Positions 266 through 56,830 of a stretch of 64,000 nucleotides of DNA are shown one piece after another. Numbering within the stretch: position 1 is the first letter of the stretch; each line of letters starts with the position of its first letter. This DNA is from a virus (lineage: Duplodnaviria > Caudoviricetes), in the IMG/VR virus record IMGVR_UViG_3300037067_018912, positions 293,276-357,275 of that record; one strand, written 5' to 3'. The notes beneath the pieces are model-generated. The model saw only the letters and a list, made by a program, of their open reading frames with translations. It was not told where the DNA came from and did not search any database. The position numbers and the translations under genes are program-made.

Positions 266-291
266 TGTAACCTTCTTATTATTTATACGTA
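266..291 (+). promoter_or_regulatory. ECF-type promoter for the RNA cluster, overlapping a host-type TATCTTTG -7 box
   Basis: TGTAAC 266-271, 16-nt spacer, CGTA 288-291; TATCTTTG 290-297. Confidence 0.75.
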
Positions 292-305
292 TCTTTGTAT
301 CATAT

Positions 306-472
306 GGGGATGTGGACAAATTGGTAAAGTCGCTTGCATGTTTACGCACAGCAGGAGAGACGGAGAGTGTACATCATAACCGTTGGGTTACAGTTGATAA
401 TTTTATGGCGGTGCGCACCGCTGTATTATGAAGACCTATAATCTTTGGGGGTTCGAGTCCCCCCCTTCCCCA
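306..472 (+). tRNA. tRNA-like RNA with 13-nt anticodon loop and ~90-nt variable region
   Basis: GGGGATG/CTTCCCC acceptor, GAC-AAATTGGTAAA-GTC D arm, CTTGC/GCAGG stem, GGGGG-TTCGAGT-CCCCC T arm. Confidence 0.65.
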
Positions 473-564
473 CGATGTCGACCGGAAGGTCGGCATTAAT
501 GTAAGGTTGAATTAAGGGTGCATGAATCTGCAGATAACATGCATCGAATAGTCTTCCAAGCATT

Positions 565-632
565 AGCGATGTAACTCAGTTGGTAGAGTGCTCCAGAAGG
601 AGAAGTCGCAGGTTCGAATCCTGCTGTCGCAA
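565..632 (+). tRNA. tRNA-like RNA with truncated anticodon arm (4 bp + AGAA tetraloop)
   Basis: GCGATG/TGTCGC acceptor, ACTC-AGTTGGTA-GAGT D arm, CTCC-AGAA-GGAG, GCAGG-TTCGAAT-CCTGC T arm. Confidence 0.75.
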
Positions 633-652
633 CTAAAAGTTCTTTGATGATT

Positions 653-869
653 TAAAGTCTTTCCGCTTGAAGCAGAGCAGCACGAATAGTTGAAAAAAAC
701 AGCGTTAACGATGATTCCATTACGGTCATCACGTAAGTGCAGGCTGATGCAGAGGCCGTTGTTTTGTGTAAAGGTGATCGCCGCCAAGTGAAGCAATCTG
801 GTAAGGGCAGATCGGTGAAAAATGGTTGAACGCCAATCATTCTCCTGCAAATGGGACGGAAAGACTTTA
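653..869 (+). ncRNA. Unassigned ~217-nt structured RNA
   Basis: Perfect 13-bp terminal stem TAAAGTCTTTCCG (653-665)/CGGAAAGACTTTA (857-869), lying between tRNA-like genes. Confidence 0.55.
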
Positions 870-872
870 TCT

Positions 873-1077
873 GGTGTCGTGGCGAAATTGGTAGACGCAG
901 CATTCATAAAGAGTGCCATAACGTAGGAATCGGTAGTAAAACCAAATTCTTGAATAGGGGTTACTGTAACGCAAGTTGCACACTGCGAAAAAGATGGGAG
1001 AATAGGACAGGATTCCGGTGGGCGAGTAATAAAGAGTGCCGGGGCGACCCGTGGAGGTTCAAGTCCTTCGGACACCG
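873..1077 (+). tRNA. tRNA-Leu(TAA)-like gene interrupted by a 123-nt insertion
   Basis: GGTGTC/GACACC acceptor, Leu-type D arm, GCATT-CATAAAG-AGTGC anticodon arm, GGG-GCGA-CCC variable arm, T arm; direct repeat ATAAAGAGTGCC at 906-917 and 1029-1040. Confidence 0.75.
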
Positions 1078-1080
1078 CAT

Positions 1081-1161
1081 GGTTGGGTAACTTAAAAATT
1101 AGAGTGGTATTCCTGAAATAGTTGGTAACGCCAGATGTTGGTTCAAGTCCAACCCCAACCG
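1081..1161 (+). tRNA. tRNA-like RNA with enlarged anticodon arm
   Basis: Perfect GGTTGGG/CCCAACC acceptor, GTTGG-TTCAAGT-CCAAC T arm, ~15-nt anticodon loop, D loop lacks GG. Confidence 0.7.
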
Positions 1162-2189: not shown

Positions 2190-2399
2190 ATGCCAACAAA
2201 AGTTGCAAGACTCGAAATTCTTGATTCCATAGGTGGGGTTGTAAAAACACACCACATTCCATATTCAAGCGAAATCGACAACACCATTGTCATCAGCATT
2301 GGCAAATATGTTTATTTCTTGAACGATGATGGTGAGATCACGATTAAATCCTTGAGAGATGATATTGATAAACAAATCTATAAACCAATAACAACATGA
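2190..2399 (+). CDS. hypothetical protein
   Basis: Operon packing, ATGA overlap with next gene. Confidence 0.6.
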   Translation: MPTKVARLEILDSIGGVVKTHHIPYSSEIDNTIVISIGKYVYFLNDDGEITIKSLRDDIDKQIYKPITT

Positions 2400-3061
2400 A
2401 AAATCTATTATTCACAATCCTTTTCGCATTCATTGCAATTAGTCTCTTCGCACAAGAAACCCAGGAAAAACCATCACCATTCTCTGCAGGTGCAGATTTC
2501 TACAGCAGTTTCATTTGGAGGGGATCGAAACTTGGAACAGGTCCGGCCTTCCAACCCTGTGTCAAATATGCCACGGACAACCTCGTGATAGGTGCTTGGG
2601 GTTCGTTTGATGCTTCCGGTTTCACAGAAACCGATCTGTTTTTCAGTTATACCCTTCCGTTCAATTTGAGCCTCGGAATGACTGATTATTACTCCCCGGC
2701 ACTTGAATATTTCGATTACTCCGATTCTACGGGAAGCCATGCATTCGAAATCAACGCCGCATACACAATCGAAGGTCTAACCCTCAACGCCAACTATATC
2801 ATTAATGAAGCAGGTGGCATGGGTTCAAAAGGTGGTGATATGTACTTCCAAGCCTTATATCAATTCAAACACTTCAATATGAGTGTCGGTGCGGGTGATG
2901 GTTGGTTAACCACTGACAACAAGTTCAACGTCTGCCACATCGGGATCGGGACAGTAAAGGAGATTAAAATAACCGACAAATTCTCTATACCCGTTACCGG
3001 GCAGGTAGTTCTCAATCCTGAACAGGAGAAGTTGTACGTGGTGGTGGGATTCTCGTTATAA
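2396..3061 (+). CDS. Bacteroidota-type outer-membrane beta-barrel protein (TorF/porin-like)
   Basis: Signal peptide, GADFYSSFIWRG, alternating beta strands, C-terminal VVGFSL. Confidence 0.75.
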   Translation: MKNLLFTILFAFIAISLFAQETQEKPSPFSAGADFYSSFIWRGSKLGTGPAFQPCVKYATDNLVIGAWGSFDASGFTETDLFFSYTLPFNLSLGMTDYYSPALEYFDYSDSTGSHAFEINAAYTIEGLTLNANYIINEAGGMGSKGGDMYFQALYQFKHFNMSVGAGDGWLTTDNKFNVCHIGIGTVKEIKITDKFSIPVTGQVVLNPEQEKLYVVVGFSL

Positions 3062-7011: not shown

Positions 7012-10000
7012 ATGATTTTGAATAACATCGTCATAAACGAAACCTACGGGAGCATTCAGGAACTCAAGAAACTCACGGACGATATCCTGTATGAGGTGGC
7101 AAGTAAGAACTATCCCGATTATCAACGTAATAATATCTTCGGGTACATCTATGGTATTCATCTCGGTGATATGGATGCAACCCGCTACAGGGAAATAGGG
7201 GATTTCGTTAAAAACCACAACGTGCAGGTGTATTTCACCCCATACAAAGAAGGTGATGTTGGTGTTAATGCAAAAACTAAAGGCACATATTTGTTTCCGT
7301 CCACAACCGATAAAAGAGATTACAAAACTGGATTCGGCAGGGAAATCAACGTTAATTACAATTACAATGAGATGAAGAATGCCGTGGATACCATGCTCAA
7401 GGAAAAGGATGCCGAAGGGAAGAACTTTAATGTGACTGATATATATTCCAAGTTTTCCTCAAGATTGCATTTGACCCTTCTTCATGAACTCCAACATGCC
7501 TATGATGAATATAGAAGTAAGGGGATGGCGTTTCAATCAAAACAATCTGTATCTTTTCAAAAGAAATATCCACAAAAAGCGGCTGCTGATACGAAAATGG
7601 AGGAATTGGCCGAACTCAATAAATTCAAATCGTATTCAAATCTCCCCCACGAAGTTTGGGCAAGGTTCACCCAGGCGGTTACTAACGTGCCCTTCTTTAA
7701 TGTCGATATGGATGCCTCGGAGAATTATTTCATTTATGCAATGAATCCTTTGCATAACGTGGTAAAAAAATTCACAACTTATTTCGAGAATTGGAGACTC
7801 CTGCCGGAGAAAATGAAATGGACACTGATTAAAAGGGTTTCACAATTTTGGCATCACGAACAGGAGAGAATGAAAGAAAAGAACCTCAAAGAAAAATCTG
7901 ATTGGGAAATTCACCAAAGACAAAAGGCAAGTGTTCCGCAAAACAATCCCGTAAATATTCCTCAAGGAAGTGTTCCTGTCCAGGCCGAGTCTCTCCTTTC
8001 AGCATCACAATTAGAGGAAGACGTCAAGAATATCACGGATGAAGAGATTGTTATCAGCGCAGGCACAGAACTCTACCACGGCACTATAGAAGAATTCGAC
8101 AAAGAAAAAGCAAAAGTCGGCGGTTATGACGAAATGTTTTGGACAACGACTAACCCCGCTATTGCACAAACTTATATACCACAATCCGGATATCTTTACA
8201 CGTGGAGTCAGACTATAGCAATGCCCAACGAAGACCCAACCGACGTGAATATGCAAAAGGCGTTTGGAATAGATTATGATTATTCCAAAGTCAAGTTTGA
8301 TAGTCATCGGGCGAGTTCTTATATGGAAGCACCTGTGTTCAGGCAGTACAGTGATCAGTATTGGACTCTGAGCAGCGAAGCATATGCGAAATACAAAGCA
8401 TTGGAAGACTTCAAAAAGGCATTCAACGAAAAAGAAAAACAAAACCTCGAAACCGATCAAGACCTTAACGAATTCGAGAGGTTGGAAAACGAGTACAGCG
8501 AAGCCGAACAGAACCTCCGTGGAATGAACGTGGAAAAGTTCAAGAACGAATACGTTAACGGCAAATTGAAAGAACTCGGCTATGAGCCTATTAAATCCGA
8601 CGATTATAACAAAAACTACGGTTGGAAACTCAAAGTTCATAATCAACAATTGCAACCAGCCGACTATAAGGCAGAAGGAAGATTATTTATCGTCAGACCC
8701 AAAAGAGATTTAAAAATCTACGATACTACTGAAGGCGGAAGCAGAGAAGCCGACTTAACCGACCTCGACTATCACAAACACACTTGGTTTCAACAAGCCA
8801 AAGAAAGTGGATATGATGGGATAAAAATTACTGACTTTGCTCAAAGCGAAGACCAAGGTAATGTGGAGCACACTTCGATTGGTCTTTTCCAAGAGACTTT
8901 AAGGGACGTTGCTATCGACGAAGTCCCTGCTGTTCATCACGAACTCGGACAATTCTACGGGACAGATTGGAAAACTCCTGAATATAAGAAATACAAAGGA
9001 ATAACAGAAGAAGAAATAACACCCGGAGGACTCAATACAACTGACCCCGGTGTAATTACTAAAACAGCGTTAAGACTTATTCTCGACTCCGATAAGGCAT
9101 ACGAAATCTTGGATACCACAAGAGCGGGAGGATCAACTTGGTGCGCAGGTGGGTGTGGGATATTGGCAGAAGCACTTAATATCCTTTATGGTTACCCTTT
9201 ATACGCCGTTTATGACCACGATTGGGGACAAGTGGATCATATGGTCGTCCGTACACCGAGAGGAACATTCATCGACTGTGACGGCGAACAAAAGGGTATC
9301 CTTGCCAATTTCAAAAGAAAGGAACATTACGAACGTCCTAATGTGAAATTATCATTGGTTCTTTATGACCAAGACGCTAAAACAAAATTACGCAACAGTA
9401 TCATTTTTGACCATAAGGCAAGCGAGAGATTGGCCGAATTAATCAAAAATGGATTAAATAATACTAATCAAAATAATACTAATCAAAATAATACTAATCA
9501 AAATAATACTAATCAAAATAATAACAATCAGACCCTTAATCAGACCCTCACAAACGAAAATGATGATCCCTCAAAGATCGCAAGTAATGGTCCTGAAGAT
9601 TCTACCAAAAAGATTTATTATAATGGACGTACCAACGCAAGACCGTACACGGGCAAATATATTTATATCACAGACTCACCCGGTTATGCATCAGGTTATT
9701 CAAACGGGAGAGAATTGTATTCTTACACCATTCCTTTCCCTGAGACGAGATTGTTTAGTATAAAAAATTCTAATCATATGAACCTGTTAAGACAATACCT
9801 CGACAGACAGACCATAGAGGCTATAATCCGAGACAGCGGTGCAGGCAGTGAAATTGATTGGGCAGCCTTTGGATATATTTCAACAGACGATTTTGAGGCA
9901 GGGGAAGATTTGTTACAGTACTTGGGTTTTTATGGAGTGAGACTAAAGGAACGTGAGGGAGTGGAATCAATCTATATCTTTGATGAAAAGAACCTGGAAT

Positions 10001-55595: not shown

Positions 55596-56780
55596 TTAGT
55601 GCGCTTTGAAGTTGTAGAGCGGCTTTATGGTGTCGACGATATCCACGGTGTCCGTGATAGCCGCCTTGATTTCTTCAATGGACTTGTAAGCCTGTGGTGC
55701 TTCGTCGAGAGTTTCAGTACCCACTGAGGTCGTATAGATTCCCTTCATCGACTTAGCGAAGTCTCCCATATCGAGGTTCTTCTTCGCCATGCTCCTGCTC
55801 ATGAGTCTACCTGCACCGTGAGGTGCGGAATAGTTCCAATCTTCGTTACCCTTACCAATACATAACAGCGAACCGTCACGCATATTGATTGGAATAAGGA
55901 GTTTCTCATCCTTTTCAGCACTTACCGCACCCTTACGTAGGATCATACGCTTGAAATCGATATAGTTGTGGATGGTCTCAAACCTCGATTCCTCGTATAG
56001 GTTCATCTCATCCAATATGATCATAGCCATCGTAGCACGGTTAAGGACGGCAAATAATTGCACGATCTTCATGTCGTTCATATAATCGTTGAAATCATCC
56101 CCGATCAGGAAAGCCAATTCCTTGTCAGTTACAGGCTTCTTGATCTTCTTCAATTCCACAGCAATATCCTTCTCACGACCTTCGGCCTTTAAACGCTTGA
56201 TAAGGTTATCCTTTATCTTACCCATTTCATTTGCGTTGGAGAATGCTAAGTCCTGATAGTACTTACACACATCACCGCCGAGTTTCCTGCTTCCGGAGTG
56301 TATAACAAGATACAACTTTCCTGTGGACTCGGACTTACCAACCTCGATGAAGTGGTTTCCACCACCCAATGAACCGAGTGATAAAGCCGCCCTTTGCAAG
56401 TCAACACGCTTTTGACAACGAAGTCCTGAAAAGTCGAACTTCGCCCTTGACTTGGAGTGTACATCGAAACCGTTTGGAACTTGGGACTTGATAATTTCAT
56501 CCAATTTCTTGAAGTCGATATCAACCTCCTTTAATTCAACAGTCAACATACCACATCCGATATCGACACCCACGAGGTTTGGGGTGATCTTATCAATGAC
56601 GGTCATGGTCGTACCAACCGTGCAACCCTTCCCGGCGTGTGCGTCAGGCATGATACGGATTTTAGAATCCTGGTATGCCTCGAAGTTACACATCTTCTTT
56701 ACTTGCTCGAATGCTTCGTATTCGAAGGTCTCAGCAAAGATGAGGGTTTCAATACCTTTTATGTTGGTTATGATCTTCAT
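55596..56780 (-). CDS. rtcB: RtcB RNA 3'-phosphate/5'-OH ligase
   Basis: MPDAH.GKG, VGVDIGCG, GGGNHFIE, HSGSR, HNY, RKGA, SAPHGAGR, DEAP.AYK. Confidence 0.95.
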   Translation of the reverse strand: MKIITNIKGIETLIFAETFEYEAFEQVKKMCNFEAYQDSKIRIMPDAHAGKGCTVGTTMTVIDKITPNLVGVDIGCGMLTVELKEVDIDFKKLDEIIKSQVPNGFDVHSKSRAKFDFSGLRCQKRVDLQRAALSLGSLGGGNHFIEVGKSESTGKLYLVIHSGSRKLGGDVCKYYQDLAFSNANEMGKIKDNLIKRLKAEGREKDIAVELKKIKKPVTDKELAFLIGDDFNDYMNDMKIVQLFAVLNRATMAMIILDEMNLYEESRFETIHNYIDFKRMILRKGAVSAEKDEKLLIPINMRDGSLLCIGKGNEDWNYSAPHGAGRLMSRSMAKKNLDMGDFAKSMKGIYTTSVGTETLDEAPQAYKSIEEIKAAITDTVDIVDTIKPLYNFKAH

Positions 56781-56804: not shown

Positions 56805-56830
56805 TACGATATTATAAGGGTTTTGTTACA
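56805..56830 (-). promoter_or_regulatory. ECF promoter for rtcB
   Basis: TGTAAC-N16-CGTA ending 25 nt upstream of ATG. Confidence 0.75.

Follow-up and report, generated by a model that had tools for sequence, protein, structure and literature searches.

The window examined here is the final 64 kb (positions 293276-357275) of a complete 357,275-bp tailed-phage genome with direct terminal repeats (Duplodnaviria; Caudoviricetes; IMG/VR record IMGVR_UViG_3300037067_018912), and it carries five tRNA-shaped genes, RNAs 1 to 5, that keep the acceptor, D and T arms of a tRNA and lack an ordinary anticodon arm. The genes are real and separately promoted, RNAs 1 to 4 as a cassette on one strand and RNA 5 at a second locus on the other. 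To judge by its relatives, RNA 5 is a working RNA and not a dead tRNA gene: its interrupted form recurs in ten homologous contigs, with a folded domain whose helices covary. We read the set as unspliced, non-decoding RNAs built on a tRNA scaffold, each with a different domain or with none, an account to which we give about as much credence as doubt. Coordinates of RNAs 1 to 5 are window positions; G000 denotes the whole 357-kb genome, and G002, G004 and the L-numbers denote related or other contigs. The tRNA-shaped genes, with the promoters and spacers that accompany them, are as follows.

266-291, plus strand: promoter of extracytoplasmic function (ECF) type, TGTAAC-N16-CGTA, for the cassette of RNAs 1 to 4 (motif count, sequence read)
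306-471, plus strand: RNA 1, class-II (Leu-type) tRNA-like frame (ARAGORN, Rfam, folding)
473-564, plus strand: structured spacer with two stable hairpins (minimum free energy -34.8 kcal/mol, z = -6.1)
565-632, plus strand: RNA 2, tRNA-like, 68 nucleotides (nt) (Rfam tRNA, 45.8 bits)
653-872, plus strand: structured spacer RNA with a 13-bp closing helix, AAAGUCUUUCCG with CGGAAAGACUUU (z = -2.3)
873-1077, plus strand: RNA 3, Leu(UAA)-type tRNA-like frame with a GGGGCGACCC variable arm (ARAGORN intron option)
1081-1161, plus strand: RNA 4, tRNA-like, 81 nt (Rfam, 39.3 bits)
38608-38811, minus strand: RNA 5, Val-type tRNA-like frame (ten homologous contigs, covariation)
38860-38885, minus strand: ECF-type promoter for RNA 5 (motif match)
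G000 34765-34934, minus strand: further odd tRNA-like gene, insert-bearing (strict scan)
G000 265389-265501: further odd tRNA-like gene with a long hairpin (strict scan)
G000 274636-274716: further odd tRNA-like gene with a UUCG-capped stem (strict scan)

A sequence-only reading of the window had proposed five tRNA-shaped genes with acceptor and T arms kept and no ordinary anticodon arm, and both statements hold: all five lie where it placed them, with D arms intact as well, and a normal 7-nt loop is absent from every one. Measured against canonical tRNA (Rfam RF00005), the acceptor stem, D arm and T arm with its T-psi-C loop are present in 5/5, and a 5-bp anticodon stem with a 7-nt loop carrying U33 and a purine at 37 in 0/5. 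Acceptor pairing is complete (7/7) in RNAs 4 and 5 and reaches 6/7 in RNA 1 (U6.C67), RNA 2 (A1.A72, with two G.U pairs) and RNA 3 (G7.G66); the T loops of RNAs 1 to 5 read TTCGAGT, TTCGAAT, TTCAAGT, TTCAAGT and TTCGAAT. At the decoding end stand a loop of 13 nt (RNA 1), a loop of 4 nt (RNA 2), an interrupted loop (RNA 3), a loop of 5 nt or of 7 nt with C33 (RNA 4) and one of 137 nt (RNA 5). The arm shapes described earlier are borne out for RNAs 2, 3 and 5; RNA 1 is not simply enlarged, having extra sequence at the variable-arm position, and RNA 4 is odd rather than enlarged. Damage in RNAs 1, 3 and 4 is confined to the anticodon region, with some 50 frame positions paired, and the same holds for RNA 2 and for three more G000 genes.

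None of the five is called by ARAGORN at default settings. Rfam places RNAs 2 and 4 above its 29-bit tRNA cut-off and gives RNA 1 25.4 bits; RNA 4 is reported by ARAGORN only at a lowered threshold, and RNAs 3 and 5 are detected solely by its intron option. That option, one of the checks suggested by the sequence-only reading, thus does report two of the genes, at forced splice points that are unconvincing. For annotators this is a warning: default tRNA finders miss such genes and intron modes mislabel them. A strict scan for tRNA frames with any interior, run on both strands of G000 and six related records (~870 kb), returned, canonical tRNAs aside, RNAs 1, 3, 4 and 5, the three odd G000 genes listed above and one gene in G002, with no further non-canonical frame in the seven records. 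The A1.A72 mismatch and two G.U pairs of RNA 2 kept it from passing this filter, yet it lies above the Rfam threshold. The pattern is therefore real, not a product of chance and wider than first noticed, and G000 holds at least eight tRNA-shaped genes with a closed or replaced decoding loop.

The inserts do not form a single mobile family: those of RNAs 1, 3 and 5 and of the genes at G000 34765, G000 265389 and G002:9546 lack mutual similarity (all z <= 1.25), and no further copies of the inserts were found elsewhere in G000. For a candidate AACU-N11-CAGUA module, 13 loose matches were expected and 17 found, with nothing meaningful inside the tRNA-like elements. A blastn search of phage GenBank gave no match, P0001 has no relatives that we could find in viral and metagenome contigs, and a search with the open reading frame (ORF) at 2396-3061 likewise came back empty. 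The insert-bearing genes at G000 34765-34934 (minus strand) and at 9546-9669 of G002, a relative whose helicase is 61% identical, are roughly syntenic, lying upstream of homologous genes, and their sequences are unrelated.

RNA 5 carries the strongest evidence. Homologues were reached through the downstream 188-aa gene and by a DNA pattern search, giving a family of eleven (G000, L073, L076, L077, L078, L080, L083, L085, L086, L087 and L088), most with the same type of promoter ahead. All 11 frames are tRNA-Val-like, with 137-170 nt inside the anticodon stem; their likeness to the tRNA-Val(UAC) of G000 covers the D arm, the anticodon stem (UCUGY/RCAGA type), the variable loop AAGUC and A73. 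In the window the stem TCTGT/GCAGG (38784-38780 with 38642-38638) encloses a conserved 137-nt domain at 38779-38643, which comprises hairpin I1 (38779-38742), a long-range helix (38741-38737 with 38652-38649), the block GAAAGUAA (38722-38715), a hairpin (38702-38686), GAAAUC (38672-38667) and a single-stranded UAACCU (38648-38643). Across the family, GAAAGUAA and AAAUC are invariant blocks and one hairpin has a UGARGCUR loop, so that the family is defined by a YCURU/GYAGR stem, GAAAGUAA, the UGARGCUR hairpin loop, AAAUC and then N-A-C-N-U; RNA 5 has them all.

The RNAalifold consensus of nine sequences places a 40-nt hairpin directly after position 31, a long-range helix that closes a central multi-helix domain, and 6-9 nt left unpaired ahead of the anticodon stem's 3' strand. 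Its 43 consensus pairs are formed in 95.9% of alignment cells, with both sides changed in 32 pairs; none of 500 shuffles did as well, and slid controls paired in at most 44%. Compensatory changes occur in each helix of the insert, and the anticodon stem covaries too (pair 30-40 changes from G-C to A-U, and pair 27-43 is C-G, U.G or U-A), while U31.G39 at the insert edge is invariant in the nine-member alignment. A covariance model of the domain (R1), built from ten members with the window copy among them, scores that copy at 112.9 bits and the members at 86-165 bits, with everything else in 777 kb at 18.3 bits or less; it finds no match in RNA 1 or RNA 3. The earlier argument that random decay would not spare such frames is thus upheld for RNA 5, in that 10/10 related contigs are interrupted with covarying helices. 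Canonical relatives with scattered decay, the outcome named as one that would count for pseudogenes, were not found for RNA 5, and the sole homologue of RNA 1 is likewise interrupted. The conserved interrupted form and the covariation together mean that RNA 5 is not a product of pseudogene decay.

The 7 nt before the 3' stem strand read NNNACNU. A35 and C36 are invariant (11/11) and U38 nearly so (10/11); position 33 is U in six members and A in five, position 34 is A in seven, G in three and U in one, and position 37 is A in six, U in four and C in one. An A at position 34 is unusual in bacterial tRNA-Val, and the main identity elements for valyl-tRNA synthetase (ValRS) are A35, C36 and A73. 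In L076 and L086 the final 7 nt form a normal-looking loop, UUAACAU. The T stem, which is the binding site of EF-Tu, has a UUU or UUUU bulge in six members and tandem mismatches in one. Among relatives with 64-83% identity in the neighbouring protein, alleles lacking the insert did not turn up. A pseudoknot between the N-A-C-N-U tail and the insert was considered and found no convincing covarying partner column, and a hammerhead was rejected, its CUGAUAG not being kept in relatives.

Other structured RNAs accompany the family in its relatives. L085 has a 68-nt tRNA-like RNA at 7652-7719 (Rfam 41.1 bits) and a second insert-bearing tRNA-like RNA at 7726-7908, whose insert has GAAAGUAA too, yet does not match R1. 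L073 (9198-9312) and L076 (7731-7844) share another conserved tRNA-shaped RNA of 112-115 nt, with acceptor GGTGTTG/CAACACC and an insert holding GGATAATGAGG...CCCTGCTGCG, which was not found in G000. Two more structured RNAs, likewise conserved, are found in the stretch from the promoter to the RNA 5-type gene (L076:7405-7490 and L080, reverse strand, ~960-1060; L073:8160-8390 and L083); one of the two contains GGTCGAACTCGAACC and a GAUG...CAUC closing helix, and a window homologue was detected for neither.

At its 3' end RNA 5 abuts a putative ribozyme, followed by two genes; a further gene of interest lies elsewhere in the window.

38539-38607, minus strand: hepatitis delta virus (HDV)-like, theta-type ribozyme candidate, 69 nt (RF02682)
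38018-38575, minus strand: HNH homing-type endonuclease, following the ribozyme (PF13392, 7.9e-6; phrog_59, 4.5e-18)
37455-38021, minus strand: 188-aa gene, phrog_4786 'cysteine dioxygenase' (homologues, synteny)
55596-56780, minus strand: RtcB RNA ligase (PF01139, 7.3e-60), with its own ECF promoter at 56830

RF02682 matches 38539-38607 over the full length of the model at 25.4 bits (E = 0.011), below its 44-bit cut-off, and gives no match on the relatives at E <= 1. By eye, compensatory changes in P1 and P4 are seen in G004, L073, L083 and L086; the element follows the RNA 5-type gene in L073, L083 and L086, and probably in L085. The predicted cut falls directly 3' of the discriminator A73 of RNA 5, a precision that suggests that the acceptor end matters. 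In G004 it is a canonical tRNA-Pro(UGG) that precedes the element, and a homologous HNH gene adjoins it: this unit of HNH gene and HDV-like ribozyme (G004:178822-179485, L069) stands at the head of a tRNA array, and L070 has the HNH gene at that place with no ribozyme. The arrangement is reminiscent of a free-standing homing endonuclease that moves from one tRNA gene to another. The 188-aa protein has 686 homologues and no Pfam match, and a homologue lies just downstream of the RNA 5-type RNA in 6/6 relatives reached through it. RtcB is a possible partner of the tRNA-like RNAs, and RNA ligase genes (PF09414) occur within 1.5 kb of the RNA 5-type locus in two relatives (L078:623-1666 and a Joint Genome Institute (JGI) contig of 24.5 kb).

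The first locus is more varied. RNA 1 has a 3-bp D stem with a AAATTGGTAAA D loop, then a hairpin CTTGC/GCAGG with its 13-nt loop (333-355), then ~91 extra nt (356-446) before the T arm; these place extra sequence at the variable-arm position and not only in the anticodon arm. Its relative in L078 (2331-2512) is a 182-nt Leu-type frame that adjoins the RNA 5-type gene of that contig; its CTTGC/GCAGG stem, identical to that of RNA 1, is closed by a UUUA tetraloop, ~100 nt separate this hairpin from the T arm, and the D arm is identical to that of RNA 3. Leu-type frames with a tetraloop, a ~110-nt insert and a 7/7 acceptor also occur in unrelated IMG/VR contigs (L090/L094 and L096/L098/L104/L105). 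In view of these and of L078, RNAs 1 and 3 fit a wider architecture: a class-II top half, no anticodon and a giant domain in the variable region. RNA 3 has ~133 nt between two 12-nt direct repeats, ATAAAGAGTGCC (906-917 and 1029-1040). The anticodon arm of RNA 2 is a 4-bp stem with an AGAA tetraloop (591-602), 4 nt where Rfam expects 9, and that of RNA 4 can be drawn in two ways, with a loop of 5 nt or with one of 7 nt that has C33 and entails a G.G stem mismatch; RNA 4 also has a 13-nt variable arm. The spacer at 653-872 has no Rfam match, and the region 633-872 shows no homology to the upstream RNAs of L073 and L083. Searches of viral contigs with DNA patterns of RNAs 2 and 5 found nothing.

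The cassette is not fixed at its site. The ORF downstream of it (1262-1588) has a homologue, 88% identical, on the JGI contig L071, which aligns with the window at the upstream DUF2227 gene and at the downstream promoter and ORF, and there a 49-codon ORF replaces the 900 nt at 259-1161. A second JGI contig, judged by gene order, lacks the cassette too, as does L072, a relative 58% identical. Since the closest relatives do without it, the cassette is an accessory module that can be swapped, and RNAs 1 to 4 are not conserved at this site.

The inserts match no established class of RNA. Permissive Rfam scans of both loci (E <= 10) found no group I intron, transfer-messenger RNA (tmRNA), Y RNA or other ribozyme within the inserts, and Rfam matches over both loci and the relatives amount to tRNA and the one HDV-like match, which leaves riboswitches and other ribozymes without support. 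For group I introns in particular, RF00028 has no match at E <= 10 in both loci or at E <= 0.5 in L073 and L076; the terminal G that they need is the final insert base in 3/11 members of the RNA 5 family, and to our knowledge group I introns are all ~200 nt or longer, as against the 91-170 nt of the inserts here. A bulge-helix-bulge intron is set aside, as the fold of RNA 5 is a multi-way junction with a hairpin right after position 31, 6-9 unpaired 3' nt and no 3-4-3 motif; neither the splicing endonuclease (PF01974) nor archease has a match in the phage genome at E <= 10. ARAGORN reports no tmRNA, and the G3.U70 pair is lacking; RNA 5 has, after GAAAGUAA, a 21-codon frame that was a conceivable tmRNA-like tag, but this region is a hairpin with compensatory changes and has no start codon in relatives. 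As to Y RNAs, YrlA (RF02553) reaches 19.3 bits against a cut-off of 69, and TROVE (PF05731), the domain of their partner protein Ro60, has no match in the whole genome at E <= 1.

We propose that the retained top half of the tRNA (acceptor, D arm and T arm) would give these RNAs tRNA-like maturation and stability, with the 5' end cut by RNase P, the 3' end cut by RNase Z or, for RNA 5, by the HDV-like ribozyme, and CCA probably added after the 3' cut. The decoding end would be closed off in RNAs 2 and 4 and in G000 274636, and in RNAs 1, 3 and 5 and the genes at G000 34765 and 265389 a folded domain, different in each, would be retained in the mature RNA. RNA 5 would then resemble tRNA-Val in its body and have a multi-helix domain of ~140 nt inserted after position 31 and ahead of the 3' half of the anticodon loop, and it might be recognised, perhaps charged, by ValRS yet be unable to read codons; recognition by ValRS is a reasonable expectation given that A35, C36 and A73 are kept, and RNA 5 may be a valine-accepting, non-decoding tRNA mimic in a DNA phage. 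It is from sequence that we infer the processing route, any charging and the absence of splicing. The earlier reading had left a choice between precursors needing non-canonical splicing and non-decoding mimics that might act as nuclease decoys, as modulators of synthetases or ribosomes, or as processing signals. The second is favoured because positions 33 and 37 are unconstrained, A34 predominates, T stems are irregular, no insert-free allele is seen and there is neither an intron signature nor an endonuclease; the canonical tRNA-Val (CAC, UAC, GAC) and tRNA-Leu(UAA) already in the genome favour it as well. The splicing branch is disfavoured, though RtcB is present and the NAC sequence is conserved.

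That branch nevertheless has substance. The inserts would be undescribed introns, cut either by a nuclease, of the host or the phage, or through the RNA's own activity and sealed by the phage RtcB, which links a 2',3'-cyclic phosphate end to a 5'-OH end, to yield tRNA-Val(NAC) from RNA 5 and tRNA-Leu(UAA) from RNA 3. We judge it unlikely, if deserving of serious attention, and much the same doubt attaches to the proposal that the RNA 5 domain, and by extension the other inserts, form a new class of phage tRNA intron, RtcB-sealed, in a private tRNA-splicing pathway. Several observations weigh against a non-decoding role here: invariant A35 and C36 with a free wobble position (A, G and U at 34 all read valine) are also what a true tRNA-Val anticodon would show; RtcB, a known tRNA-splicing ligase, is encoded within the window behind a promoter of the same class, and the relatives with RNA ligase genes near the locus point the same way. 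The normal-looking UUAACAU loops of L076 and L086, the loop-like context of UAA in RNA 3, the invariant U31.G39 at the insert edge and the conserved 'enigmatic introns' in the tRNAs of Lak megaphages (PMC6784885) also speak for introns. However, the phage encodes neither splicing endonuclease nor archease, the covariation-supported fold is a multi-way junction rather than a bulge-helix-bulge, no group I match exists and a terminal G is found in 3/11 only. No splice point yields U33 in 5/11 members or a purine at 37 in 5/11; insert-free alleles are unseen and canonical isoacceptors present; and in RNAs 2 and 4 and the relative of RNA 1 the tetraloop or pentaloop is such that splicing cannot make an anticodon loop of it.

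A non-decoding function is least secure for the cassette, where RNAs 2, 3 and 4, and perhaps RNA 1, could instead be decaying or insertion-damaged array copies, functionless and carried along in a swappable promoter cassette, an explanation that we consider improbable. It draws on findings that count against our preferred reading: the whole cassette is missing from the three nearest relatives, replaced in L071 and absent from the other two; no homologue was found of RNAs 2, 3 or 4 and just one of RNA 1, so that nothing shows selection on RNAs 2, 3 and 4; the 12-nt repeat of RNA 3 resembles a recent insertion scar, like a target-site duplication; and RNAs 1, 3 and 5 fold no better than shuffled sequence (z = -1.0, -1.0 and +1.2). 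The content of the tRNA array also differs widely between G000 and G004. Set against decay are damage restricted to the anticodon region with the frame paired in all four and in three more genes, tidy closures such as the AGAA tetraloop of RNA 2 and the UUCG cap at 274636, a phage-specific promoter of the cassette's own with two strongly structured spacers, and the recurrence of the RNA 1 architecture in L078 and unrelated viral contigs; for RNA 5 decay is excluded. The tRNA shapes might also serve as marks for cutting by RNase P and RNase Z, releasing the RNAs at 473-564 and 653-872 as the functional products and separating RNA 5 from the HNH mRNA, a view compatible with the others and, as the explanation of the set, quite improbable. 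Here the spacers are more structured than the tRNA-likes (z = -6.1 and -2.3), other conserved structured RNAs stand beside the RNA 5-type gene in relatives, and tRNA-punctuated processing is established for mitochondrial transcripts and tRNA-linked small RNAs. Yet cutting marks leave the covarying 140-nt domain of RNA 5 and its invariant A35, C36 and A73 unexplained, a plain tRNA or simple hairpin would suffice, and RNA 5 in G000 has no upstream RNA to release.

Both loci sit behind the phage ECF promoter, as had been noted from the letters alone, with the motif at 266 (plus strand) and 38885 (minus strand); the genome has 45 copies of (T/C)GTAAC-N16-CGTA, where chance would give 1.5. Between the -10 box and the 5' end of tRNA-like genes sits a motif, AAGTTCTTTAA or AAGTTCTTTGA, that could be a shared leader or processing site: it is found in the window at 637-647 and 38818-38826 (minus strand), at L085 7622-7633, and just upstream of tRNA-likes in L076, L077, L078, L080, L086 and L087, and one occurrence follows RNA 2, where there is no promoter. 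The canonical tRNA genes of G000, about 60 at 249-283 kb and 159 kb, include Val(CAC, UAC, GAC), Leu(UAA) and two suppressors, opal (UCA) at 159671-159745 (minus strand) and amber (CUA) at 282907-282981 (plus strand), even though the standard code (code 11) leaves long ORFs open; L085 has two CUA suppressors near its RNA 5-type RNA. Many tRNAs for class-I amino acids in G000 249-283 kb (L013-L015) have long variable arms and are otherwise canonical, for instance at 250497-250583, 265074-265158 and 276549-276633, with sizes of 87 nt for Gln(UUG), 83-85 for Lys, 85 for Thr, 86 for Asn, 82 for Cys and 83 for Trp; the long Gln and Trp forms are seen again in G004 (L031, L033). The Leu(UAG, CAG, CAA) tRNAs of G000 are 75 nt, without a long variable arm.

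Several known systems invite comparison. The tRNA-like ends of the phage T4 RNAs RNAC and RNAD are matured by tRNA-processing enzymes. These two stable RNAs (species 1 and 2), of no known role, come from the T4 tRNA region (PMC3014915) and, likened by description only, resemble the G000 RNAs as small RNAs of phage tRNA region or type; they are 119-139 nt long and lie inside a tRNA cluster, whereas the G000 tRNA-likes are in separate cassettes with ECF promoters. In Lak megaphages, which infect Prevotella, some tRNAs are reported to contain conserved 'enigmatic introns' (Devoto et al. 2019, PMC6784885), and again by description only these phages share with G000 a huge genome, Bacteroidota-type hosts, large tRNA sets and conserved tRNA inserts outside Rfam classes. 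What led to the Lak inserts being termed introns was tRNAscan predictions and the occurrence of alleles both with the insert and lacking it; for the G000 RNAs, by contrast, no insert-free allele is seen, several genes lack a possible anticodon, and RNA 5 has a covariation-supported fold. Theta (minimal HDV-like) ribozymes have been described 3' of phage tRNAs in a study that connects them with suppressor tRNAs as well as with recoding (Kienbeck et al. 2024, PMC10879173) and does not mention interrupted tRNAs. As in those cases, the putative ribozyme of RNA 5 abuts a tRNA-type 3' end that self-cleavage would make; unlike them, RNA 5 is a non-canonical tRNA-Val-like RNA and an HNH gene follows.

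In tymoviruses, a pseudoknotted element at the 3' terminus of the plus-strand RNA genome forms a valine-accepting tRNA-like structure (Rfam RF00233). RNA 5 may be a functional analogue of it, as viral mimicry of tRNA-Val without decoding, and there is no homology between RF00233 and RNAs 1 to 5 (13.1 bits, on RNA 1 only). YrlA and tmRNA are, like the G000 RNAs, non-decoding and built on tRNA-like modules, and bacterial Y RNA genes often lie beside rtcB. The usual reading of RtcB in jumbo phages is tRNA repair (PMC7824862).

The biology of huge phages gives these genes their interest. Codon supply and escape from host tRNA-cutting defences are the usual explanations for the dozens of tRNA genes that such phages carry. 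The genes described here would add a second layer, in which the body of a tRNA serves a second time, as the frame on which non-decoding RNAs are built, at least one of which (RNA 5) is conserved, with its own folded domain and a predicted self-cleaving 3' end. Should the RNAs prove stable and charged, their targets may be tRNA enzymes, synthetases or defences of the host, acted on in a way not described before; should they be spliced, viruses of bacteria would possess a means of splicing tRNA that is not known from bacteria themselves. With eleven sequences, a covariance model and a fold, the RNA 5 family turns the 'enigmatic introns' of the 2019 megaphages into a directly testable case.

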